A stretch of DNA of 27,464 bases from a virus (IMGVR_UViG_2541047865_000002), one strand, 5' to 3'; positions 3,135 to 24,912 are shown, counted from the stretch's first letter. The notes: generated from the sequence alone by a model not told the origin. Numbers and translations are program-made.

Positions 3135-3737
3135 ATGAGCTATTTTCTGCGCAAAAAATGGATGGTAAATTTGTCCGGGTCAGGAAAAATTTTATGGGCG
3201 CTAAACATGAAAAAAGATTCGTATCCTTATTTGATTTGCATGACAGTTTCAGGGCTGATCTTTATTTTCCTTTTCTTCTGGTGGCGGGCAGATATCTACA
3301 GGGTCACGTTTCTTAATCAGAGTATATCCCACTATTACATTCTGTTTAGCATGGGAATAGCTTTTCTGTTATCTCTGTTTTGGGTTAAGAAGGGGATAGT
3401 AAAACAAAGAGGCTGGAAGAGTCTGTCAGCATACCTTAAGGTTTATGCAGGGATGTGCATATTTGCTGGATTTTTTCTGATTATACCCCTTACGACACTA
3501 ACTTATTTTTTGCCTGGAGAGACATCGTCTTATGTTGCACCGTATCGGTATACTTCCGGTAGTTCAAAAAGTTGTTCTGGAGCTGAGGTGGATGACCCCG
3601 ATCTACATGAGAATATTCGCATTTGCTATCCGTATGGCAATTATGAGTACGATAATATTATCTATGTTGAAAAGAAAATTAATATATTAGGTGCGGTAGT
3701 GACATATGCACAGACCGCGCGTGATGATACTGAATGA
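3135..3737 (+). CDS. Hypothetical integral membrane protein (about 3 predicted TM helices plus a C-terminal soluble domain of about 75 aa); start may instead be the ATG at 3207
   Basis: 200-codon ORF in visibly AT-rich DNA; hydrophobic stretches LICMTVSGLIFIFLFFWW, ILFSMGIAFLLSLFWV and CIFAGFFLIIPLTTL; transcribed convergently to the phage leftward operon; no family recognised. Confidence 0.55.
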   Translation: MSYFLRKKWMVNLSGSGKILWALNMKKDSYPYLICMTVSGLIFIFLFFWWRADIYRVTFLNQSISHYYILFSMGIAFLLSLFWVKKGIVKQRGWKSLSAYLKVYAGMCIFAGFFLIIPLTTLTYFLPGETSSYVAPYRYTSGSSKSCSGAEVDDPDLHENIRICYPYGNYEYDNIIYVEKKINILGAVVTYAQTARDDTE

Positions 3738-11177: not shown

Positions 11178-11590
11178 TTAGTTATTACTTGATTTGATGG
11201 TTATCTCGAAAACATCCAATCAAATTTAATGGTTTGCTTTGTGCGGGGAACTATAACAATGTTTCTAGCTTGGTGCTGTATGAATTAGTGAATTAGTAGG
11301 GAATATATCCACACATTGATTAACACAAAAATATTTTAGATATTAAATGTAACTCAAAGGATGAGTAATAATGGTTGTGTAGCGTATAACAGGATGCTGA
11401 GGTAGTATTAAACAATGAATAAATCTGATTGACAAGCACCAGATAATACTGCGGGTCAATCATTAGACATGAACGCCACTAGTTACTGAGAGTAACTAAT
11501 GGCGTTGTGTTTATAGTTAAGATGTTTTTTAAAACATCAGGGGGGCTCTACTTGTCTTTTTTAATATGATCAATCTCATCATTAAGACAT

Positions 11591-13096
11591 TTATCTATTT
11601 TTTTTTATTAACACATTAATTTCTTCGGTGTTTTGGAGTTGAGTTGTCTTAGAAACAAAAACTCGAATAAAGAATTTAACATAGTGATAGGGTTGAAGTA
11701 CATCGTTATACTTACATAAATCATTTATTGTATACTTGCCGCCTGTTTCTTTTTTTATTATTTTAGCTTGACTTGTATCGATATCTTTAAAGTTATCTTC
11801 AATCTGAAAATCAAGAACCCATTCATCTCCTTTTAAATTATCCTCAATGATTTTGTTGATTTTCTTAGATATATTTTGTTTATATTCTTTGTATCTGTTG
11901 TCGGAAATGTTAACATTAGAAAACGTGTGTTTTTTTTCATATATTTTTTTCCAAACATTTCTATCAACAATATCTTGAATTATAGCTTGAGAATTTTTAT
12001 CTAATGTGTTTTTAAGAGTGTTTTCTAAAAACGTTTTGTCTGGGTTTTCACGATAAAAGTGTTTGATGGACTCAATGAGAGTGTTTTTAGATTTTAAAGA
12101 GACAACATCATCAGTTTTTTTTCTAGAACACGCTTTGTTAAGCATCGCAGATAGTGCACGATTGGTCTTATGAAAATAAACTTGACTATAAAGCCCACTT
12201 CTTGCATTGGCAAATTCTAGTATTGAATCCATACCACTTTCTTTATATGCCAGGTAAACACTATTTTCAACTTTCACAGGAATAAATGACATTAATAATC
12301 GTCCATAATCATAAATCCCATATTTAACGCCGGAGAAGTAGCTATCTCTAAGTAGGTAGTCCATTCTGTCCGCATCTATAGGTGAAGATGATATGATTGA
12401 ACCTAATAAAGGATATACATTTACTCCCTCAATGTTATTTTTAAAATCATATCTTTTATCAACAATTTTTATAATGCTTTCTGGATTAATAGCCGCTATG
12501 TTTTCTTTATAGACATCGTCGTCATTTGATTTATCTTGGGCTTCATTTTTTAATTCTTCAATAATTTCTTTAATAAAAATACATGATACTTGTTCGTGGG
12601 TTAACTTGTCATTATCACTTAAAGATATAATCTTATCGTATTGTTTATTTCCTTCAGTTTTGCATTTTTCTTTGAAATCTTTTACGGATATTGCAAAACT
12701 ATCGAATTGGTGGGCAAGTGGGCCATGCCCAACATCGTGTAACAATGCTGCAATACGTAACTCCTGTATAAGACTTGAAGGCATTTTTTTTATATCTAAA
12801 TATAGATCAATGCCCATATTTTTTCGATTGTAAATTAGTGCATTTAAATCAATATTTTTTAATATTTCATACGATAAATGCATTACACCGACAGAGTGTT
12901 CAAAGCGAGAGTGCATTGCAGAAGGAAATACTTTATATAGAAACGTGTTCTGCCTGATATCTCGTAGTCGTTGGAATAAAGGATGGTCAATTATCTTTTT
13001 TTCTAGCTTAGTTATTCGAATCACTCCATGTATGGGATCTAAAAACTTCCCCAGAAGTAAGTCTTCAAAGTTCTCAAGTTTGTTTTTGTTTGTCAT
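11591..13096 (-). CDS. HD-domain dNTP triphosphohydrolase-like protein (SAMHD1/dGTPase family), 501 aa; candidate anti-phage dNTP-depletion enzyme
   Basis: HD motifs HSRFEHSVGVMHLS, ALLHDVGHGPLAHQFD and DADRMDYLLRDSYFSGVKYG; SD AAGGAAAG upstream; in AT-rich cargo antisense to the phage operon. Confidence 0.8.
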   Translation of the reverse strand: MTNKNKLENFEDLLLGKFLDPIHGVIRITKLEKKIIDHPLFQRLRDIRQNTFLYKVFPSAMHSRFEHSVGVMHLSYEILKNIDLNALIYNRKNMGIDLYLDIKKMPSSLIQELRIAALLHDVGHGPLAHQFDSFAISVKDFKEKCKTEGNKQYDKIISLSDNDKLTHEQVSCIFIKEIIEELKNEAQDKSNDDDVYKENIAAINPESIIKIVDKRYDFKNNIEGVNVYPLLGSIISSSPIDADRMDYLLRDSYFSGVKYGIYDYGRLLMSFIPVKVENSVYLAYKESGMDSILEFANARSGLYSQVYFHKTNRALSAMLNKACSRKKTDDVVSLKSKNTLIESIKHFYRENPDKTFLENTLKNTLDKNSQAIIQDIVDRNVWKKIYEKKHTFSNVNISDNRYKEYKQNISKKINKIIEDNLKGDEWVLDFQIEDNFKDIDTSQAKIIKKETGGKYTINDLCKYNDVLQPYHYVKFFIRVFVSKTTQLQNTEEINVLIKKNR

Positions 13097-13455
13097 GAGG
13101 CTTTCCTTTTGCTGTAGTTATAATACGAAATTTAAATAGTAATGATGTTTATAGTTTCAATGTGTTATCTAATGGTTAACACATTGTGATGTAGCATATC
13201 AATATGGATTCATATGTTCAATTGGTCTGTGGAGTTTAGTTATGAATAAGATTGATTCTGGTAATACTTTGTAGTTTAAGCTAGAGGCGGGATTCGTGAT
13301 GTTCAAATCAGTATGTAATGGAGGTTGTGCATTAGTACTTGCTGCTGGAAATTAAAAATAAAGTTGCAAGTAATCGACGTTTTCCGAGAGGAGAATGTAA
13401 GCATCGCTGACCAAAAAGTATCAACGATGCCTGTTTTGTTTTAACTACAAATTAA

Positions 13456-13716
13456 TTAAATTGCATCTGCAAACTCTGGGATTTTTCGCTCAAGTATGAT
13501 TGATGAGTTGCTGTTGTCGCTTTTTTTATTTTCATGATTACGAATAGCCAATGACTCATTAAAGTCTTTTGCGACTGCTGTCTCAATAAATTCAATTTCT
13601 GAATCAGAGTGTTTTTTAACAGCTTCTTTGATCTCATCCAGAGTAACATAGAAAAACTCTTTTCTACGATTTACAAGATTGACTCTCTTTTTATCGAAGA
13701 CATCATGTAGTTTTTT
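13456..13716 (-). other. -1-frame continuation of the T5orf172 domain (LHDVFDKKRVNLVNRRKEFFYVTLDEIKEAVKKH...), entered at slippery heptamer A_AAA_AAC (13710..13716); either a programmed frameshift or a homopolymer frameshift mutation
   Basis: Manual translation: the domain's expected C-terminal motifs are open for 87 codons in the -1 frame starting exactly at a 7-A run; no ATG in that frame; the zero frame stops 17 codons later. Confidence 0.6.
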
Positions 13717-14957
13717 TCTAATGATGGAGCGTCCTCCGAATAAATCATGGCATGCACATCAAAAATAAAAGGAACAGATGCATCACCAAGCTCATTTACA
13801 CGGTCTTGTGGATCAAGACGTCGTGTCATGCCTATTTTATAAACATTCTCCCCAAAAGAACCTATGTTCGAAATAATATAAACATGACCTTGTTTGGTTT
13901 GTTGTGCCATGGATAATGCTCTTTGATGCTTTGATTCAGCCTGCGACAAACTCTGTTCTAGTTCGGCAATGCGATTTTCGAGGCGCTGCTTCATGTCACC
14001 AGTAACTTTTTCCATTTCCTTTCTTGCAGCTTCAATTGCTTTTTTATAACGGCGCTCTTCTGCCTCTGCGTCTTGCATGGCCTTTTCTATTTCTCGTTGT
14101 GCACGCTCCTCCTCTCTCATTTGTGCCCTTATTTCTGCCTGTTCTTCTTTTTCTTTCTGTTTTTGCTCACGATATTCATGGGTAAGCCACAACTCCTCAA
14201 GTTTTTTATTAAGGTATTTAGTATTTATATATATGTGATTTTGCTCGTTTAGTTTATTTATGGCCTCAAATGCCTTTGTGATGCGTTCTTCCATTTTAGT
14301 GATATTTTTCCACGTGCAATTACTAATTGCAGCATCACATTCATTATTAAATGCTCTAGTAGTTAGCCTAATATTTCTGTCTGTCATTTTTTTACCCTCT
14401 GCTCGAGAGCCTTCAACAGTCCATTGGGTTGTGCAATATACTGCACCAGAGTGGGTTTTATCCCGCAGCATTAATTTCTGTTCATCCCTGATGGATTTTA
14501 TTTTGTTTTTAAATTGCTCTGAATCTTCAAAATTAAAATGAGGTTCGTAAAATCCTAGTTCGGCTAGTTCAACATCTTCTGAATAAATAGAAATTTGCTT
14601 TACTAACTTATCATATATTTCTTTCTTCTCTTTATAAGTTCTTCTTAGTTCTTGGATTTGTTTATTGATACCATCCATTTTTTCAATGGTGTTTGTTAGT
14701 TCATTATTGGCATTTTCTTTTACTTTTTGGGACTCTTCTTTTATAATGGAGCATTCTTGCTCTGTTTTCTCAATAAGCTTCTTACATTCCTCTTCCACAT
14801 TAAAATAATCTGCAAAGCGAGATTTGTATTCTTCATTTTTTTGATTGCTATCACTTAATTCTAATTGTATTTTTTTGATGCGTTTGATTGCAGCTATATA
14901 TAGAACAAGAACAACCAATAAAAATATGATTGCAAGTAATAGTGGAGTTTGAGTCAT
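13671..14957 (-). CDS. Membrane-anchored coiled-coil protein with DUF4041 and the N-terminal part of a T5orf172 (GIY-YIG-like) domain; 428 aa in the zero frame
   Basis: N-terminal TM helix LLLAIIFLLVVLVLYIAAI; long coiled-coil (EERAQREIEKAMQDAEAEERRYKK...); DUF4041-like core; C-terminal GHVYIISNIGSFGENVYKIGMTRRLDPQDRVNELGDASVPFIFDVHAMIYSEDAPSLE; SD AAGGAA upstream. Confidence 0.85.
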   Translation of the reverse strand: MTQTPLLLAIIFLLVVLVLYIAAIKRIKKIQLELSDSNQKNEEYKSRFADYFNVEEECKKLIEKTEQECSIIKEESQKVKENANNELTNTIEKMDGINKQIQELRRTYKEKKEIYDKLVKQISIYSEDVELAELGFYEPHFNFEDSEQFKNKIKSIRDEQKLMLRDKTHSGAVYCTTQWTVEGSRAEGKKMTDRNIRLTTRAFNNECDAAISNCTWKNITKMEERITKAFEAINKLNEQNHIYINTKYLNKKLEELWLTHEYREQKQKEKEEQAEIRAQMREEERAQREIEKAMQDAEAEERRYKKAIEAARKEMEKVTGDMKQRLENRIAELEQSLSQAESKHQRALSMAQQTKQGHVYIISNIGSFGENVYKIGMTRRLDPQDRVNELGDASVPFIFDVHAMIYSEDAPSLEKNYMMSSIKRESIL

Positions 14958-15383
14958 TCGTGCTATTCCTTACGGACAATTTAAGACGTTTTGTATTAAA
15001 TCCTGTTCAATGTGTATGCGGGTGATTGCTACCGCTTACAATCTTCATAATTATCAGTTAGATAGACTCGCTAGTAAATAATTTCATTTTTTGCAATATT
15101 CTTATTGAATATTTCAATTTATGAAATGAGCTCTTTATCCTTTCAAGGCGAAAGGTTTCTTCTTCGGAAATATTTGCTCTCGTGTGACGTATAAAGGCCT
15201 TTGATTTTTAAAAAACAGTAGGAAATAATATAGTTACTGTCGGCCTGAACACCCGGCGGTGGGGTTGCGCTAAACGGGGACGTTTATGCGCACATACAAT
15301 CTAAACTCTCTTCTCCCTTCACAGATGCAGAAATGCACCTGCGATTTTTTGCATCCAACGTTTGACCTCTGCGGAGGTGAAGC

Positions 15384-16873: not shown

Positions 16874-17251
16874 ATGCGTGATATTCAGATGGTTCTTGAG
16901 CGTTGGGGAGCGTGGGCGGCTAATAATCATGAAGATGTGACCTGGTCGTCCATTGCCGCCGGTTTTAAGGGATTAATTCCTTCAAAAGTAAAATCTCGCC
17001 CACAATGTTGTGACGATGACGCGATGATCATTTGCGGGTGCATGGCCCGTCTGAAAAAGAACAACAGCGATTTGCATGATTTATTGGTGGACTATTATGT
17101 CGGCGGCATGACTTTTATGGCGCTTGCACGTAAGCATGGGCGATCTGATTGTTGGGTTGGCAGGATGCTCCAGAAAGCTGAGGGCGTAGTGGAGGGTATG
17201 CTGATGGTGTTGGATCTCCGATTGGAGATGGATGCTGATTGTTCGAAATAA
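16874..17251 (+). CDS. quuD: Q-family late-gene antiterminator (DLP12 QuuD-like), 125 aa
   Basis: [62 protein letters not shown]... recalled as QuuD; sits immediately upstream of the late/lysis region. Confidence 0.9.
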
Positions 17252-17349
17252 TTAAAGGAAAAGTTGCTGTCTGATTCTCATTAGTCTAACATTTTAAATG
17301 TTGGAATCGCAACGTAGTTATTATCATATAACAGCTTGTTTCCTGATTT

Positions 17350-17378
17350 AGCCAGCCTCCCCAAAGGCTGGTTTTTTT
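17350..17378 (+). terminator. Intrinsic terminator about 100 nt downstream of the Q gene (candidate tR' of the pR' leader)
   Basis: Hairpin CCAGCC-TCCCCAAA-GGCTGG followed by TTTTTTT. Confidence 0.6.
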
Positions 17379-17406
17379 CTAATAAGTATTATTTCGGGTA
17401 GGGATT

Positions 17407-17931
17407 TTATTGTTTAACCCATAATAATTCATTGACATTGAATCCCAACTTTTGAGCGGTTCGCACATAGTCTGCTTTTACTTTATCTGGAATAGTTGGG
17501 GTCCTTGCCAGAATCCATAGGTATTCTCTGTTCGGACCACTGACAAGAGCATACTTATACTCATCATCCAGTTTGATTACATTATAGCCACCATAGAAGG
17601 GGCCAAAAAACGAAACCTTCAACGCTGCAGTTTTAGTATCTCCAGTAAAGTATGCTTTACCTTCGCTCTCGCTCCATTTATTTTTCGTTGGATCGTATCC
17701 ACGGTTAAGTACACGAATCCCTCCGTCGTTCCGTTTTCCATAAGTAGCGCTGACCTGTTCCAGACCACGTTCGAATCGGTTCTCGAGGCGAGCTATTTCA
17801 TACCACTTTCCGAGGTAGCGGTTGGCGTCAAAATTTGTAATCGGCTGCACACCTTTAGGTGGTGTCGGGACCTTACATGCTATAAGAGTGAAAGAGAGTG
17901 CAATGCCAGTCAACACAGGCCATAACTTCAT
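17407..17931 (-). CDS. Blc-like bacterial lipocalin, outer-membrane lipoprotein, 174 aa
   Basis: Signal peptide with lipobox (LIAC); strong similarity to E. coli Blc as recalled (FDANRYLGKWYEIARLENRFERGLE...SEGKAYFTGDTKTAALKVSFFGPFYGGYNVI...YLWILARTP). Confidence 0.85.
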   Translation of the reverse strand: MKLWPVLTGIALSFTLIACKVPTPPKGVQPITNFDANRYLGKWYEIARLENRFERGLEQVSATYGKRNDGGIRVLNRGYDPTKNKWSESEGKAYFTGDTKTAALKVSFFGPFYGGYNVIKLDDEYKYALVSGPNREYLWILARTPTIPDKVKADYVRTAQKLGFNVNELLWVKQ

Positions 17932-18123
17932 AATAAATCCTGTACTTTTGATAGTTGAGAGTAAGTATGAAAGATAGATGATTACGACCGATCACTTAAA
18001 GAACTTTCATACTATATTAGGAATAGTCCATAACAGAAAAATTGTCAGTGATGACGCCAGAAAGGCAATTTATTCCGTGCACTACACAGTTTATGTGTTA
18101 ATGAATTAGTCAAGGGGGAGGAT

Positions 18124-19083
18124 ATGATAAAAAAACCTGTGATTGGAATCAGCGGTTGTCTGGCCGGTTCTGCTGTTCGTTTTGATGGTGGTCACAAAAG
18201 AGCTGACTTTTTAATGGACAAATTAGTGGAATGGGTAACATTCAGACCAGTATGTCCGGAAATGGCTATAGGGCTGCCAGTTCCGCGTCCTGCTCTACGT
18301 CTTGTGCGCTCGACGCAAGGAAATATACGGATGTGTTTCAGCCACGACCAGAATGAGGATGTGACAGAGAGAATGACAGAGTTTAGTCGTTCTTATATGG
18401 ACAAATTAAAGGATGTATCGGGGTTTGTGGTTTGTGCTAAATCTCCCAGCTGTGGCATGGAGCGCGTGCGTGTCTATGATGAAAATGGTAATCGAGGTCG
18501 TAAAGATGGAGTGGGACTATTTACGAGCACTTTGATGGAAAAGTTTTCCTGGCTACCGGTTGAAGAGGATGGGCGATTACATGATCCAGTGCTTCGTGAG
18601 AATTTTGTTGAAAGAGTTTTTGCTTTGCATGAGCTCAATCACCTTTACAAGGAGAAATTATCAAGAAGAGAGTTATTAGCTTTTCATAGTCGTTATAAGC
18701 TTCAGTTGTTGGCGCATAGTCAGGCAGGCTATAAAGATATGGGACCATTTGTGGCTGCAATACACGAGTGGGCGGACCTTGAATCATACTTTGAGGTGTA
18801 TCGTGATAAGCTGATGGCGATTCTCAGAAAACCTGCATCACGTAAAAATCACACGAATGTGCTGATGCATATACAGGGGTATTTTAGTAACTACTTAAGT
18901 ACACGCCAGCGTAAAGAGTTGAGCGAGGTTATACTTAACTATCGTTCTGGCACATTACCTCTTCTTGCGCCGTTGACTCTGCTGAAGCATTATCTGGGTG
19001 AGTATCCTAATGATTACTTGCTTACACAGAATTACTTCGATCCCTATCCGGACGAACTGGCTCTAAGACTGATGGTAAATTAA
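18124..19083 (+). CDS. DUF523 (TudS-like, putative Fe-S thiouracil desulfidase) plus DUF1722 (YbgA-like) fusion protein, 319 aa
   Basis: N-terminal VIGISGCLAGSAVRFDGGHK with conserved Cys residues (C12, C44, C104/C109); C-terminal YbgA-like half; strong SD GGGGGAGGA. Confidence 0.75.
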   Translation: MIKKPVIGISGCLAGSAVRFDGGHKRADFLMDKLVEWVTFRPVCPEMAIGLPVPRPALRLVRSTQGNIRMCFSHDQNEDVTERMTEFSRSYMDKLKDVSGFVVCAKSPSCGMERVRVYDENGNRGRKDGVGLFTSTLMEKFSWLPVEEDGRLHDPVLRENFVERVFALHELNHLYKEKLSRRELLAFHSRYKLQLLAHSQAGYKDMGPFVAAIHEWADLESYFEVYRDKLMAILRKPASRKNHTNVLMHIQGYFSNYLSTRQRKELSEVILNYRSGTLPLLAPLTLLKHYLGEYPNDYLLTQNYFDPYPDELALRLMVN

Positions 19084-19425
19084 TTGTATGCGATATCATC
19101 CAAAAGGATGAGTTCCTGCATGCAGGATATTTACAATCGTAAAAACTACACTATGATACCCAGAGTGTCAGTTTGTATAAAAACTCTGTTTACGCTGAAG
19201 AAACCATTGAGATGCAACTTAAAGTTGGTAAACATGCCAGTCAAAATATATAATATTATGATTCCACGCAGCTATATATAATATAACAGATTGGTTTAAT
19301 AATTTGTCTTTGTGAGTTAAATACATAATTTTATACTTGTGATGCAATGAGATTTTCCTTATTGTTGAACTGGCGAATATTGATTTTCCACCTATACTTA
19401 CCTGGTGTAACCCCAATGATATCAG

Positions 19426-20160
19426 GTGGATAATATGCCATACATATGTTCTATCATTTTGGTGTTGAACTCGTTTGATGTCCGAATTGGTAAAGAAGAT
19501 ATTTTATTTAAAAAAGGAAGTGCTGTTCTCATTGATTACAATTTAAAAGATTTTTTTTCATCAAATATAGATCATGCAATGATCGTAGATGTTGAAGAGA
19601 AAACAGTTAATGATTTCTTTAAAAGCAACACACTCTCACCTTTTTCTGTAAGAAGGTTTTATCCGGCATACTTGATGGTGGAATGTGAAGATTTTTCATT
19701 GTTAAAGAACTTGATTGCATGCTTGAATTGTGATGGCAGAACTGTGGATTTTGTTAGAAATCAAATATCACTTGCATGTCTTGCTATCTTATCTTCAGAG
19801 AAAATAGTGCAAAGTTTTTTATTTGGATGTCTTAATAGTTTAGGAAGTAAAGTTAAGGCTATTATTCACACGGATATATCTGCAGCATGGAGACTTTGTG
19901 ATATATCTTCAAGACTGTATCTGAGTGAAAGTCTGTTAAAAAGAAAATTAAAGCACGAAGGCTTATCATTTAGTAAGTTAATTCTTGAAGAGCGAATGGT
20001 GATGGCGGAAAGGTTATTAAGCTACAATTTATATTCTGTTGGAAAAGTTACTGAGATATGCGGTTATGAAAACACGTCATATTTTGTAAGTGTTTTCAGA
20101 AGATATTTTGGTGTTCCTCCCCATCAATATTCATCAAGATTTTTTTTAGAAAAGACATGA
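19426..20160 (+). CDS. AraC/XylS-family transcriptional regulator, 244 aa
   Basis: C-terminal double HTH (…ERLLSYNLYSVGKVTEICGYENTSYFVSVFRRYFGVPPHQY); gene is visibly AT-rich with rare-codon flavour, suggesting horizontal acquisition. Confidence 0.85.
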   Translation: MDNMPYICSIILVLNSFDVRIGKEDILFKKGSAVLIDYNLKDFFSSNIDHAMIVDVEEKTVNDFFKSNTLSPFSVRRFYPAYLMVECEDFSLLKNLIACLNCDGRTVDFVRNQISLACLAILSSEKIVQSFLFGCLNSLGSKVKAIIHTDISAAWRLCDISSRLYLSESLLKRKLKHEGLSFSKLILEERMVMAERLLSYNLYSVGKVTEICGYENTSYFVSVFRRYFGVPPHQYSSRFFLEKT

Positions 20161-20227
20161 TGTAACGTGATGCGTTTTAATGATTTTGTAATTTTCGTAT
20201 TTGATAATTGTATGATGCTTTCAGCTA

Positions 20228-20258
20228 CGCCAGAATAATCGCTGGCGTTTTTCTTTTT
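20228..20258 (+). terminator. Intrinsic terminator downstream of the AraC-family gene
   Basis: Hairpin CGCCAG-AATAATCG-CTGGCG followed by TTTTTCTTTTT. Confidence 0.5.
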
Positions 20259-20353
20259 GAATAGATGTTCAAGCCTTACGCTAATGTAACTTCTATACCT
20301 TTCCTCTTCGTTCCGAACCGTGTACACCATCCGTTATTTGCGGAGGTGAGGCT

Positions 20354-20569
20354 ATGAAATCCATGGATAAGTTAACAACGGGTGTCGCCTATGGCACCTC
20401 AGCAGGTAGTGCCGGTTACTGGTTTTTACAGCTGCTCGATAAAGTCACGCCCTCACAGTGGGCAGCAATAGGTGTGCTGGGTAGCCTGGTATTTGGCCTG
20501 CTGACGTACCTGACAAACCTTTATTTCAAGATTAAAGAAGATAAGCGCAAGGCTGCGAGAGGTGAATAA
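20354..20569 (+). CDS. S: Class II holin (phage 21 S21-type pinholin), 71 aa
   Basis: [71 protein letters not shown] closely matches S21 as recalled; two TM segments. Confidence 0.9.
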
Positions 20570-20987
20570 TGCCTCCATCATTACGAAAAGCCGTTGCTGC
20601 TGCTATTGGTGGCGGGGCTATTGCTATAGCATCTGTGCTAATCACTGGCCCAAGTGGTAACGATGGTCTGGAGGGTGTGAGACATAATCCTTACAAAGAC
20701 ATAGTTGGTGTATGGACTGTATGTTACGGGCATACAGGAAAAGACATCATTCCTGGTAAAACGTATACCGAAGCAGAGTGCAAAGCCCTCCTGAATAAAG
20801 ACCTTGCCACTGTCGCCAGACAAATTAACCCGTACATCAAAGTCGATATACCGGAAACAACGCGCGGCGCTCTTTACTCGTTCGTCTACAACGTGGGTGC
20901 TGGCAATTTCAGAACATCGACGCTTCTTCGCAAAATAAACCAGGGTGATATTAAAGGCGCATGTGATCAGCTACGGCGCTGGACATA
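20569..20987 (+). pseudogene. R: SAR endolysin (phage 21 R-type lysozyme) truncated by IS3 after about 139 codons
   Basis: N-terminal SAR domain [27 protein letters not shown] and lysozyme core match R21; the ORF runs into the IS3 terminal repeat at 20988 and ends in IS-encoded residues. Confidence 0.85.
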
Positions 20988-21017
20988 TGATCCTACCCAC
21001 GTAATATGGACACAGGC

Positions 21018-21884
21018 CTAAGCGAGGTTCTGGTTTTCAAATTGTTCCGGACTGAGGCCGCCACACCAACTGTGCCGCCGCCACCGATTGTAATCACATT
21101 CGATATAATTAAACACCGTTGCCCGCATTATTTCCCGGCTGATAAAGTGTTCTCCATGGATACATTCCACTTTCAGCGAATGAAAGAAGCTTTCCACGCA
21201 GGCATTATCGTAGCAGCAACCTTTTGCGCTCATACTTCCACGCAGATTATGCCGCTTCAGTTGCGCCTGATAATCTGCTGAACAGTACTGGCCTCCACGG
21301 TCCGTGTGAACGATAACGTTCCGGGGCCTCTTACGCCGCCACAGCGCCATCTGCAGGGCATCGCAGGCCAGTTGCGCCGTCATGCGTGGCGACATTGACC
21401 AGCCAATAACGGCACGTGACCACAGGTCAATGACCACTGCCAGATACAGCCAGCCTTCATCTGTACGTAAGTACGTGATGTCTCCTGCCCACTTCTGGTT
21501 CGGGCCACTGGCGTAAAAATCCTGCTCCAACAGATTTTCTGACACAGGCAGGCCGTGTGCGCGGTAGCTGACCGGGCTGAACTTCCGGGAGGCCTTTGCC
21601 CTCAGTCCCTGACGGCGCAGGCTTGCCGCCACGGTTTTTACGTTAAAGGGGTAACCCTGAGCACGCAGTTCATCCGTCAGGCGTGGGGCACCGTAACGCT
21701 GTTTTGACCGGGTAAAAGCCGCGAGGACAACGCTGTCGCAGTGTTGGCGGAACTGCTGACGCGTGCTTATCCTTGTCCGCCGCTGACACCACGTATACCA
21801 GCCGCTGCGGGCCACCCGGAGCACGCGGCACATTGCTTTGATGCTGAACTCAGCCTGATGTTTTTCAATAAAGACATACTTCAT
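21018..21884 (-). CDS. insF: IS3 transposase OrfB (DDE integrase domain), 288 aa
   Basis: [36 protein letters not shown]... matches IS3 InsF; start overlaps the orfA stop (AAATGA). Confidence 0.95.
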
Positions 21885-22180
21885 TTCAGGCGCTTCGCGA
21901 AGTATGTCGCGGCCTTTTGGAGGATAGCCAGCTCTTCATCCCGTTCTGCCAGCTGGCGTTTGAGACGTGCAATCTCGGTAGACATCTCCAGTTCACGTTC
22001 AGAAGACGTCTGCTGATTTTGCTGTTTACTGCGCCAGTTGTAGAGCTGTGATTCATACAGGCTGAGTTCACGGGCTGCGGCAGTAACACCGATGCGTTCA
22101 GCAAGCTTCAGGGCTTCACTGCGAAATTCAGGCGAATGCTGTTTACGGGGTTTTTTACTGGTTGATACTGTTTTTGTCAT
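21881..22180 (-). CDS. insE: IS3 transposase OrfA (HTH), 99 aa
   Basis: [54 protein letters not shown]... matches IS3 InsE. Confidence 0.9.
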
Positions 22181-22245
22181 GTGAGTCACCTCTGACTGAG
22201 AGTTTACTCACTTAGCCGCGTGTCCACTATTGCTGGGTAAGATCA

Positions 22246-22340
22246 TCCCTACTTCCCCGGATGTGGCGGACATGACGGAGGATGACGTAATGCTGATGAC
22301 AGTATCAGAAGGGATCGCAGGAGGAGTCCGGTATGGCTGA
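22246..22340 (+). pseudogene. T: 3' remnant of the lambda tail assembly gene T (G-T), truncated at the IS3 junction
   Basis: In-frame reading ...LMTVSEGIAGGVRYG* ends with its stop overlapping the H start (ATGGCTGA), the normal T-H arrangement; all upstream sequence is replaced by IS3. Confidence 0.5.
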
Positions 22341-24912
22341 ACCGGTAGGCGATCTGGTCGTTGATTTGAGTCTGGATGCGGCCAGATTTGACGAGCAGAT
22401 GGCCAGAGTCAGGCGTCATTTTTCCGGTACGGAAAGTGATGCGAAAAAAACAGCGGCAGTCGTTGAACAGTCGATGAACCGGCAGGCGCTGGCTGCACAG
22501 AAAGCGGGAATTTCCGTCGGGCAGTATAAAGCCGCCATGCGTATGCTGCCTGCGCAGTTCACTGACGTGGCCACGCAGCTTGCAGGCGGGCAAAGTCCGT
22601 GGCTGATCCTGCTGCAACAGGGGGGTCAGGTGAAGGACTCCTTCGGCGGGATGATCCCCATGTTCCGGGGGCTTGCCGGTGCGATCACCCTGCCGATGGT
22701 GGGGGCTACCTCGCTGGCGGTGGCGACCGGAGCGCTGGCGTATGCCTGGTATCAGGGCAACTCAACCCTGTCCGATTTCAACAAAACGCTGGTCCTTTCC
22801 GGCAATCAGGCGGGACTGACGGCAGATCGTATGCTGGTCCTGTCCAGAGCCGGGCAGGCGGCAGGGCTGACGTTTAACCAGACCAGCGAGTCACTCAGCG
22901 CACTGGTTAAGGCGGGGGTAAGCGGTGAGGCTCAGATTGCGTCCATCAGCCAGAGTGTGGCGCGTTTCTCCTCTGCATCCGGCGTGGAGGTGGACAAGGT
23001 CGCTGAAGCCTTCGGGAAGCTGACCACAGACCCGACGTCGGGGCTGACGGCGATGGCACGCCAGTTCCATAACGTGACGGCGGAGCAGATTGCGTATGTT
23101 GCTCAGTTGCAGCGTTCCGGAGATGAAGCCGGGGCATTGCAGGCGGCGAACGAGGCCGCAACGAAAGGGTTTGATGACCAGACCCGCCGCCTGAAAGAGA
23201 ACATGGGCACGCTGGAGACCTGGGCAGACAGGACAGCACGGGCATTCAAATCCATGTGGGATTCGGTGCTGGATATTGGTCGCCCGGACACTGCCCAGGG
23301 AATGCTGGAGAAAGCAGAAAAGGCTTTTGATGAGGCGGACAAAAAATGGCAGTGGTATCAGAGCCGGAGCCACCGGCGCGGTAAAACCTCAGCATTTCTT
23401 GCCAATCTCCGGGGAGCATGGGAGGACAGAGCGAATGCGCAACTTGGGCTTTCAGCCGCCACGTTGCAGGCCGATCTTGAAAAGGCCAGAGAGATGGCAG
23501 CAAAGGACTGGGTCGAGTCTGAGGCATCACGGCTGAAATATACCGAAGAGGCGCAGAAGGCTTACGAACGCCTGCAGACGCCGCTGGAGAAATATACCGC
23601 CCGTCAGGAAGAACTGAATAAGGCACTGAAAGACGGGAAAATCCTGCAGGCAGATTACAACACGCTGATGGCGGCAGCGAAAAAGGATTATGAAGCGACG
23701 CTGAAAAAGCCGAAGCAGTCCGGCGTGAAAGTGTCTGCAGGCGATCGCCAGGAAGACAGTGCTCATGCTGCCCTGCTGACGCTTCAGGCAGAACTCCGGA
23801 CGCTGGAGAAGCATGCCGGAGCGAATGAGAAAATCAGCCAGCAGCGCCGGGATTTGTGGAAGGCGGAGAGTCAGTTCGCTGTACTGGAGGAGGCGGCACA
23901 ACGTCGCCAGCTGTCCGCACAGGAGAAATCCCTGCTGGCGCATAAAGATGAGACGCTGGGGTACAAACGCCAGCTGGCTGCACTTGGCGACAAGGTTACG
24001 TATCAGGAGCGCCTGAATGCGCTGGCGCAGCAGGCGGATAAATTCGCACAGCAGCAACGGGCAAAACGGGCCGCCATTGATGCGAAAAACCGGGGGCTGA
24101 CTGACCGGCAGGCAGCGCGGGAAGCCACAGAACAGCGTCTGAAGGAACAGTATGGCGATAATCCGCTGGCGCTGAATAACGTCATGTCAGAGCAGAAAAA
24201 GACCTGGACGGCTGAAGACCAGCTTCGCGGGAGCTGGATGGCAGGCCTGAAGTCCGGCTGGAGTGAGTGGGAAGAGAGCGCCACGGACAGTATGTCGCAG
24301 GTTAAAAGTGCAGCCACGCAGACCTTTGATGGTATTGCGCAGAATATGGCGGCGATGCTGACCGGCAGTGAGCAGAACTGGCGCAGCTTCACCCGTTCCG
24401 TGCTGTCCATGATGACAGAAATTCTGCTTAAGCAGGCAATGGTGGGGATTGTCGGGAGTATCGGTAGCGCCATTGGCGGGGCTGTTGGTGGCGGCGCATC
24501 CGCATCAGGCGGTACAGCCATTCAGGCAGCTGCGGCGAAATTCCATTTTGCGACCGGAGGATTTACGGGAACCGGCGGCAAATATGAGCCAGCGGGGATT
24601 GTTCACCGTGGTGAATTTGTCTTCACGAAGGAGGCAACCAGCCGGATTGGTGTCGGCAACCTGTACCGCCTGATGCGGGGCTATGCGGAAGGTGGTTATG
24701 TGGGCGGTGCCGGAAGTCCGGCGCAGATGCGGCGGGCTGAAGGCATTAATTTTAATCAGAACAATCACGTGGTGATTCAGAACGACGGTACGAATGGTCT
24801 GCCAGGTCCACAGATGATGAAGGCAGTGTATGACATGGCCCGCAAGGGTGCCCGTGATGAAATTCAGGCACAGATGCGCGATGGTGGTCTGTTCTCCGGA
24901 GGTGGACGATGA
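22333..24912 (+). CDS. H: Tail tape-measure protein H, 859 aa
   Basis: Near-identical to lambda H as recalled (MAEPVGDLVVDLSLDAARFDEQMARVRRHFSGTESDAKK...); Gly-rich C-terminal region. Confidence 0.95.
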   Translation: MAEPVGDLVVDLSLDAARFDEQMARVRRHFSGTESDAKKTAAVVEQSMNRQALAAQKAGISVGQYKAAMRMLPAQFTDVATQLAGGQSPWLILLQQGGQVKDSFGGMIPMFRGLAGAITLPMVGATSLAVATGALAYAWYQGNSTLSDFNKTLVLSGNQAGLTADRMLVLSRAGQAAGLTFNQTSESLSALVKAGVSGEAQIASISQSVARFSSASGVEVDKVAEAFGKLTTDPTSGLTAMARQFHNVTAEQIAYVAQLQRSGDEAGALQAANEAATKGFDDQTRRLKENMGTLETWADRTARAFKSMWDSVLDIGRPDTAQGMLEKAEKAFDEADKKWQWYQSRSHRRGKTSAFLANLRGAWEDRANAQLGLSAATLQADLEKAREMAAKDWVESEASRLKYTEEAQKAYERLQTPLEKYTARQEELNKALKDGKILQADYNTLMAAAKKDYEATLKKPKQSGVKVSAGDRQEDSAHAALLTLQAELRTLEKHAGANEKISQQRRDLWKAESQFAVLEEAAQRRQLSAQEKSLLAHKDETLGYKRQLAALGDKVTYQERLNALAQQADKFAQQQRAKRAAIDAKNRGLTDRQAAREATEQRLKEQYGDNPLALNNVMSEQKKTWTAEDQLRGSWMAGLKSGWSEWEESATDSMSQVKSAATQTFDGIAQNMAAMLTGSEQNWRSFTRSVLSMMTEILLKQAMVGIVGSIGSAIGGAVGGGASASGGTAIQAAAAKFHFATGGFTGTGGKYEPAGIVHRGEFVFTKEATSRIGVGNLYRLMRGYAEGGYVGGAGSPAQMRRAEGINFNQNNHVVIQNDGTNGLPGPQMMKAVYDMARKGARDEIQAQMRDGGLFSGGGR

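Follow-up and report, generated by a model that had tools for sequence, protein, structure and literature searches.

Three cargo genes between Q and the holin gene

In a 27,464-nucleotide stretch of DNA from a virus (IMGVR_UViG_2541047865_000002; "the window" below means this whole stretch), we analyzed a block of three cargo genes that lies between the late antiterminator gene Q and the holin gene S of a lambdoid prophage. The original prediction, made from the sequence alone, had placed in this slot a lipocalin gene, a gene for a DUF523-DUF1722 protein (rudS, see below), and an AT-rich gene for an AraC regulator, and this content was borne out. The borders of the slot (17252 to 20353) are exact, with the Q stop codon at 17251 and the start of the P21-type holin gene at 20354, and the three open reading frames (ORFs) are intact, the lipocalin ORF on the minus strand and the other two on the plus strand (Table 1). 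The GC content of the AraC gene is 0.317, compared with 0.48 in Q and S and 0.44 in the other two cargo genes, which are slightly lower than the phage backbone; the spacers are at 0.33 to 0.35. Each of the three cargo proteins falls into a separate PHROG family, and PADLOC gave no defense-system match among them.

The minus-strand gene, which is antisense to late transcription, encodes a lipocalin of the Blc type. Its NF007786 score exceeds the family cutoff (Table 1), and the N terminus read from the translation, MKLWPVLTGIALSFTLIAC, has a signal peptide with the lipobox LIAC. The protein is 60% identical to Blc of Escherichia coli K-12, 77% identical to a MerR-linked lipocalin of Serratia rubidaea, and 82% identical to a metagenome protein (P0155). 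Judged by these identities, it is a Blc paralogue from the same family as the chromosomal protein and not a copy of the host blc gene. A study of gut lambda phages counted blc among their morons and found it in over 50% of them (Mathieu et al. 2020, PMC6969025).

The second protein is made of two domains, PF04463 (2-thiouracil desulfurase/DUF523) at residues 7 to 149 (E value of 3e-40) and PF08349 (DUF1722) at residues 192 to 309 (E value of 2e-40). RudS proteins have been described as a TudS [4Fe-4S] desulfidase fused to DUF1722 that strips 4-thiouridine (s4U) from tRNA (Jamontas et al. 2024, PMC11417400). The window protein shares with this family both the two-domain architecture and the three cluster cysteines, Cys12 (GCLAG), Cys44 (CPE), and Cys110 (SPSCG), which are invariant in the homologue alignment and correspond to the cluster-ligand positions listed for RudS_vir and RudS_ST (PMC11417400). 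A PDB sequence search aligned only residues 6 to 66 to TudS, and the third cysteine was confirmed by inspecting the sequence and the alignment. The window protein is 93% identical to RudS_vir, the gp66 protein of phage 1H12, whose gene lies in the same Q-lipocalin-rudS-AraC-holin block. On domain architecture, ligand residues, and identity, we assign it as RudS, a predicted tRNA 4-thiouridine de-modifying enzyme. The predicted domain identity stands. The original prediction had suggested thionucleobase sensitivity as one deletion phenotype to look for; this needs correcting, as RudS acts on tRNA 4-thiouridine and not mainly on free thionucleobases (PMC11417400). Overexpression of RudS lessens the growth delay induced by UVA light, overexpression of RudS_vir in E. 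coli lowered the tRNA s4U level, and E. coli is described as a species without RudS, having only the stand-alone DUF1722 protein YbgA (PMC11417400). YbgA is 49% identical to the DUF1722 half of the window protein, lacks the catalytic TudS domain, and is encoded upstream of phr; the phage rudS is not its copy. Bacterial rudS genes adjoin a MerR/LitR-type regulator gene or a photolyase gene, whereas the phage rudS adjoins neither.

The third protein is an AraC/XylS regulator with homologues almost confined to Escherichia. Its DNA-binding domain was recognized by HTH_AraC (E value of 2e-9) and matched the GadX DNA-binding domain structure 3mkl with an E value of 9e-20. The best NCBIfam match was YdeO (NF007407) over the full length; however, the score of 124.4 bits is far under the equivalog cutoff of 348, and we rejected the assignment as YdeO and call the protein YdeO-like only. 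A regulator of the O157 prophage Sp1/CP-933H is 53% identical over 235 of the 241 residues without gaps (E value of 7e-87). That gene follows the tail-fiber genes and, by its gene context in the Sakai prophage Sp1, is ECs_0287, also known as Z0321 or PatE. The window protein has the C-terminal AraC/XylS double helix-turn-helix of the PatE family and full-length homology to it, the N-terminal domain included. Like PatE, PsrA, and PsrB of E. coli O157:H7, it is 241 to 247 amino acids in size, prophage-borne, AT-rich, and nearly Escherichia-only. Unlike PatE, it sits at the Q-S site and not at the right end past the tail fibers. PatE-like genes (about 52% identical) are found at the right end of mEp332, PhiR70_1, and ev099; judged by these positions, the family evidently moves between moron sites. 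Activation of gadE and hdeAB, with increased acid resistance, is known for PatE and PsrB, and PsrA and PsrB raise the expression of GadE and YhiF (PMC10877973). Prophage AraC/XylS regulators have also been found to feed into acid resistance in a study of AppY (PMC10057817).

The Q-S slot is exchangeable and the block is widespread

We searched 5,426 complete E. coli genomes, counting the Q-to-S stretch at a coverage of at least 80%. The whole block was found in 979 genomes, always with Q and essD; the lipocalin and rudS genes are present in 1,047 genomes and the AraC gene in 996. The best full-window match in this set has 94% coverage and 99% identity. The whole block is also present in 12 sequenced phage genomes, with DNA identities of 98.2% for IdasGreatGrand and about 90% for the 1H12/Lambda_ev group. 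In 1H12, Lambda_ev087, and their relatives (Jouyvirus), as well as in IdasGreatGrand, the same five genes occur in the same order and orientation as in the window; in 1H12 they are gp64 (Q), gp65 (Blc), gp66 (RudS_vir), gp67 (AraC-like), and gp68 (holin). Between the window and the 1H12 group, RudS is 93% and the AraC protein about 83% identical. The difference from these phages is that the window copy sits in a defective prophage that has lost the genes from Rz through the proximal tail in association with IS3.

E. coli TOK-001 was the sole genome with a 100% match of the Q-S block. It carries the block in a different and more decayed prophage at the same ybhC-ybhB site (L001, 13986 to 31831), which has IS2 and IS66 insertions and has lost most of its early and structural genes, with the cargo block intact.

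The slot had been likened to the stx/nmpC moron site, and the same flanking genes do hold other cargo elsewhere. In the DLP12-type phages ev243, ev099, and PhiR70_1 and others, Q and the P21-type holin gene are about 93% identical to those of the window, and an OmpD/NmpC porin gene lies between them, also on the minus strand. Comparing the window with ev243, homology is lost at the Q stop codon and regained at the ribosome-binding site of the holin gene. As in the window, the first cargo gene of ev243 is opposite to late transcription, which must cross the cargo in both. The Q gene is also related to Q of many Stx1a/Stx2a-converting phages (75 to 78% DNA identity over nucleotides 1 to 340), and the analogy to the stx slot therefore rests on homology. 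In Stx phages, stx sits in the same Q-S slot and is crossed by late transcription. Two marks of a moron were seen, namely, different cargo between the same flanking genes in related phages and, for the AraC gene and the spacers, a base composition unlike that of the phage backbone. That related phages do without the block argues for its being dispensable to phage growth.

The similarity to the Stx-phage Q genes ends about 40 nucleotides before the Q stop codon, the point where the similarity to ev243 ends. The entire leader past the Q stop codon of the DLP12-type phages is unlike that of the window, and the late promoter, the Q-loading region, and tR' differ between phages with closely related Q (17180 to 17350 in the window, 1890 to 2100 in ev243). 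The pR'-tR' region therefore seems to move together with the cargo or with the final codons of Q.

The lipocalin/rudS pair resembles a chromosomal module

Chromosomal RudS proteins of Citrobacter, Serratia, Klebsiella, Enterobacter, and other genera are 70 to 77% identical to the phage protein. The gene order in Serratia rubidaea is lipocalin (minus strand), MerR/MlrA-like regulator (plus), and rudS (plus). A lipocalin gene divergent from a MerR gene that heads an operon was seen in Cedecea and on a metagenome contig, and the Citrobacter rudS closes a SnoaL-SDR-amine oxidase-DUF1365-CFA synthase operon.

A scan with one genome per species gave 80 rudS loci (L019 to L098), in 27 of which RudS is 68 to 77% identical to the phage protein. 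Among these 27, a divergent upstream lipocalin gene (74 to 81% protein identity) was found in 13, with a MerR gene in between in 11 of the 13, and 12 have rudS downstream of DUF1365/CFA-synthase genes, as the last gene of the full operon in the loci inspected closely. All 80 loci lack both a phage holin gene and the AraC gene, and the 27 closest lack Q as well. The module of a lipocalin gene divergent from a MerR (MlrA-like) gene and rudS, as seen in Serratia rubidaea, Enterobacter, Leclercia, Lelliottia, Raoultella, and Buttiauxella, is like the phage pair in its divergent arrangement and in these protein identities.

It differs, however, in its control elements. A single copy of a palindromic box, AAAMTTGNACA-N12-TGTNCAAKTTT, was found in every chromosomal rudS locus scanned (L006 to L013), lying upstream of either the operon or rudS itself (for example, at L010 5714 to 5747, L012 4972 to 5005, and L006 32 to 65). 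The box has the appearance of an operator/promoter of the neighboring MerR (MlrA-like) regulator and resembles the E. coli MlrA box. Visual inspection of the L038 alignment showed a matching box too. Salmonella STM1389/ORF319 is reported to be controlled by a MerR regulator. The phage pair has neither the MerR gene nor the box. In the window, no MerR box scored above background, the best scores being 13 to 14 of 20 with the wrong spacing; an operator remnant was rejected, as such scores equal the window-wide background. The lipocalin-proximal part of the divergent intergenic region (to about 18040) still aligns with chromosomal lipocalin-MerR spacers and keeps a conserved TCATACTATATTA at 18007 to 18019 (TCNTANTATATT motif).

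We conclude from these comparisons that a phage captured an enterobacterial lipocalin/rudS pair and lost the MerR regulator with its operator. Because the chromosomal pairs are in other genera, are unrelated to prophages, and have lipocalins at only 74 to 81% identity, they point to a source of the cargo and not to a misassembly. The AraC gene was probably acquired separately, as its GC content of 0.317 differs from the 0.44 of the pair.

Two further observations concern the chromosomal genes. The Enterobacterales RudS proteins form two clades, the lipocalin/MerR/DUF1365-CFA-linked one (27 loci) and a second one with 54 to 62% identity to the phage protein, whose genes lie directly upstream of the photolyase gene phr in 50 loci. 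The phr-linked clade looks like the counterpart of E. coli ybgA-phr, which would be that type minus the catalytic TudS domain. In Kluyvera cryocrescens (L042, 5352 to 6960), the lipocalin and rudS genes are directly divergent with a 112-bp spacer and no MerR gene, the same architecture as in the phage pair, and the neighbors are chromosomal (pseudouridine synthase, MFS transporter, helicase, GH28, and nucleoid protein genes).

All three cargo genes are under purifying selection

We calculated the ratio of nonsynonymous to synonymous substitution rates (dN/dS) between the window and phage 1H12, which are about 10% diverged in DNA. The ratio was 0.078 for the lipocalin gene (blc) and 0.104 for rudS, compared with 0.106 for Q and 0.048 for S. 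The AraC gene gave 0.26 as a whole, 0.34 for the N-terminal half, and 0.13 for the DNA-binding half. All three cargo genes are under purifying selection. Conservation within the block is lowest in the spacer that separates rudS from the AraC gene, where the window and 1H12 are 67% identical.

Leader, promoters, and terminators

A tR'-like terminator had been predicted at 17350 to 17378. Our scan recovered this site, about 100 nucleotides past the Q stop codon, which is the stronger of the two terminators of the region by its stem (9 versus 7 pairs). The fold of the leader is dominated by it (-24 kcal/mol; z = -3.8; 0 of 200 shuffles as good), and its stem-loop and T-tract are kept in IdasGreatGrand and in Lambda_ev087, the latter with one extra T. 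The second terminator, which closes the AraC unit about 100 nucleotides before the holin gene, is likewise kept in both phages. The idea that each cargo gene has its own terminator or promoter space held only for the AraC gene with respect to termination: past the lipocalin gene on the minus strand, no intrinsic terminator was predicted by the terminator scan or by folding, and directly 3' of rudS, there is a hairpin/palindrome with a weak T-tract.

For the late promoter pR', two candidates were picked by their match to the consensus, and neither is placed with confidence. Placement by comparison with porin-carrying and Stx phages was tried and rejected, as the homologous stretch stops within the 3' end of Q, and the leaders beyond it are unrelated. 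The promoter scan gave 13 promoter-like sites, compared with 10.9 expected from shuffles, which is no enrichment. Scanned against Rfam with gathering thresholds, the whole window gave no match, and the slot therefore holds no known small RNA or tRNA-like element.

Table 1. Features in and around the Q-S slot (window coordinates)
Feature	Position	Strand	Evidence or remark
Late antiterminator gene Q, 125 amino acids from ATG; left border	16874..17251	+	PF06530, E 2.5e-51; ORF opens at TTG 16859
Alternative pR' candidate, TGGAGA-18 nt-AATAAT	17223-17252	+	Promoter scan
Candidate late promoter pR', TTGCTG-17 nt-TAACAT	17264..17292	+	Read from sequence
tR'-like intrinsic terminator	17350..17379	+	9-bp stem (17350-17373), 5 GC pairs, T7 run
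Blc-type outer-membrane lipocalin lipoprotein gene, 174 amino acids	17407..17931	-	Lipocalin_2, E 7e-44; NF007786, 315.9 bits vs cutoff of 267
Divergent intergenic region	17932..18123	.	90.6% identical to 1H12; no MerR gene or MerR-type operator
rudS, TudS (DUF523) [4Fe-4S] desulfidase fused to DUF1722, 319 amino acids	18124..19083	+	PF04463 and PF08349
AT-rich spacer, GC 0.325, presumed AraC promoter region	19084..19434	+	Two 10/12 sigma-70-like matches
Sigma-70-like promoter matches (10/12)	19130-19157; 19225-19254	+	Promoter scan; unenriched over shuffles
PatE/Psr-family (YdeO-like) AraC/XylS regulator gene, 241 amino acids	19435..20160	+	HTH_18, E 1e-13; ORF opens at GTG 19426
Intrinsic terminator closing the AraC unit	20227..20257	+	7-bp stem (20227-20248), 5 GC pairs, T-run
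Holin gene S, P21 type, essD-like; right border	20354..20569	+	PF04971, E 2e-35
Endolysin gene (RrrD-type lysozyme), truncated by IS3	20569..20987	+	PF00959, E 4e-41; intact homologues of 498 nt
IS3, complete, 1,258 bp	20988..22245	-	99% identity to annotated IS3 copies; rve/HTH_Tnp_1 domains

The prophage is defective

The window corresponds to a lambdoid prophage inserted beside ybhC, at the lambda attachment region, with the following order from left to right: the genes for integrase and recombination; cI, cro, cII, O, and P; an AT-rich island; the genes from ninB to rusA; Q, which matches the Q21 structure 6p18 only weakly (E value of 1.9e-8); the three-gene cargo; the holin and lysozyme genes; IS3; and the tape-measure and distal tail genes. 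The inverted repeats at the ends of IS3, as read from the sequence, are TGATCCTACCC... and ...GGGTAAGATCA. IS3 joins the truncated lysozyme gene to sequence just upstream of the tape-measure gene (22333 to 24912), and the prophage has lost Rz and the terminase, head, and proximal tail genes. The window copy is defective through this IS3-associated deletion.

Other genes of the prophage also look like accessory cargo. The AT-rich island (11400 to 15100; 33% GC, down to 27%) between the replication genes and ninB encodes on the minus strand a 428-residue protein (13671 to 14957) with DUF4041 and a MUG113 nuclease-like domain, which is a full-length match to the anti-phage defense protein PD-Lambda-1 (PADLOC E value of 3e-169). 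The adjoining gene on the same strand encodes a 501-residue HD-domain protein (11591 to 13096; Pfam HD E value of 1e-6) with a weak PADLOC dGTPase match (E value of 0.0015), which belongs to phrog_35128, a family with no function assigned; it may be a second defense or nucleotide-depleting gene. The region of 38% GC that separates the excisionase gene from the recombination genes holds a 200-residue ORF (3135 to 3737, plus strand) with no Pfam domain, the C-terminal 88 residues of which match phrog_1416, a family of unknown function; this ORF is possibly another moron.

Discussion

The reading that we favor, with a probability of about 78%, is that the block is a composite three-gene moron island of two origins in the exchangeable Q-S slot of a lambdoid prophage at the lambda attachment site. 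One part would be the lipocalin/rudS pair, captured from an Enterobacterales module in which the lipocalin gene diverges from a MerR (MlrA-like) gene that is followed, in some cases after further genes, by rudS, a module that would belong to light/photo-oxidative-stress gene neighborhoods. RudS would turn near-UV-sensitive tRNA 4-thiouridine back to uridine, and because E. coli has no RudS of its own, the prophage would be its supplier. The other part would be the AT-rich, Escherichia-restricted regulator of the PatE/PsrA/PsrB family, whose characterized members switch on the host GAD genes (gadE and hdeAB).

Under this reading, the lipocalin and AraC genes would probably be transcribed from their own promoters in the lysogen, the AraC unit stopping at its own terminator. 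Upon induction, Q-modified RNA polymerase from pR' would cross tR', the 3.1-kb cargo, and the 20227 terminator to reach the lysis genes, reading rudS and the AraC gene in the sense and the lipocalin gene in the antisense direction, in likeness to stx in Stx phages. The architecture requires such Q-dependent read-through, which we soundly infer because every late gene lies downstream of the cargo. Promoters, read-through, and any phenotype of the window copy are predictions from the DNA, and the activity of RudS_vir and the functions of PatE and PsrB were established for close homologues and not for the window alleles, to which they would apply by analogy.

Several points weigh against this reading. 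Although well expressed, RudS_vir desulfidated tRNA less than the other RudS proteins did (PMC11417400), and its physiological substrate, or its activity level in a lysogen, is uncertain. At 53% identity to PatE, the AraC protein may have a different regulon. Transcription from own promoters in the lysogen is unproven, because promoter-like matches are no commoner than in shuffled sequence, and pR' was not placed, the homology of related Q genes ending in the 3' end of Q and the leader differing between phages. For the window copy, whose head genes are lost and whose lysozyme is truncated, functions that depend on productive lytic growth no longer apply.

A different view, which we hold to be unlikely but worth weighing, is that the cargo mainly serves the phage. 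Here rudS, perhaps with the AraC gene, would be an auxiliary late gene expressed by Q read-through after UV-triggered induction; removal of s4U would avoid near-UV cross-linking of tRNA, uncharged tRNA, and the stringent response, and late protein synthesis would continue. Both genes point in the direction of late transcription and are situated between pR'/tR' and the lysis genes, and induction must transcribe them; the loss of the ancestral MerR regulator and operator of rudS leaves read-through as the obvious driver; the relief of the UVA-induced growth delay by RudS fits; and the dN/dS of rudS equals that of Q. However, the block is intact in the defective prophages of the window and of TOK-001, which fits a benefit to the host. 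In addition, the lipocalin gene is oriented against late transcription, and related phages have a porin gene instead of the block. Another possibility, which we consider quite doubtful, is that the AraC protein replaced the lost MerR regulator and controls the divergent lipocalin and rudS promoters, making the three genes one regulated unit. Their co-occurrence of about 95% (979 to 1,047 genomes), the missing MerR gene and operator, and the same block architecture in two lineages about 10% diverged in DNA speak for it. On the other side, PatE-family genes stand alone at other moron sites past the tail fibers (Sp1/CP-933H, mEp332, PhiR70_1, and ev099), the characterized members act in trans on the host gadE and hdeA promoters (PMC10877973), and the difference in GC content suggests a separate acquisition. 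We find it rather improbable that both apply jointly, that is, that the block is a phage-serving UV-stress kit, in which RudS made by Q read-through erases s4U, averts tRNA cross-linking and ppGpp, and protects late translation, with a PatE-like regulator in the place of MerR at the lipocalin/rudS promoters. If this were true, UV damage would induce the prophage and RudS would erase the near-UV sensor 4-thiouridine from host tRNA.

Very little speaks for functionless remnants decaying in a dead prophage. The prophage is indeed defective, with its IS3-associated deletion and truncated lysozyme gene, but the three ORFs are intact, RudS keeps its catalytic cysteines, dN/dS is 0.08 to 0.26 against a phage lineage about 10% diverged, and the same block is found in genomes of isolated phages; we give this view very low credence. 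The original prediction had allowed for an assembly chimera, to be recognized by a conserved chromosomal block unrelated to prophages. Lipocalin and rudS genes are indeed neighbors in nonphage contexts of Serratia, Enterobacter, Kluyvera, and others, but these copies are 68 to 82% identical at the protein level, lack the AraC gene, and in the 27 closest loci have neither Q nor S. As the exact Q-to-S arrangement stands intact in 979 complete genomes and 12 phage genomes, the block is not a chimera, an explanation that we regard as refuted for practical purposes.

Much of the composite island was already known: this is a classic slot, public phage genomes already contain the block, blc is a recognized moron, RudS_vir has been assayed, and the regulator family has been described. 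Our additions are modest, namely, the origin of the pair, the loss of MerR control, the family assignment of the AraC protein, and the frequency of phage-borne rudS in E. coli. The origin of the pair would be a case of a phage picking up part of a regulated chromosomal stress module and leaving the regulator behind, with the genes then coming under phage late control. The PatE-like regulator may add another prophage input to acid resistance. Phage-borne rudS is present in about one-fifth of the complete genomes (1,047 of 5,426) of a species described as RudS-less, and prophage content may explain differences between strains in the level of tRNA 4-thiouridine and in near-UV growth delay.

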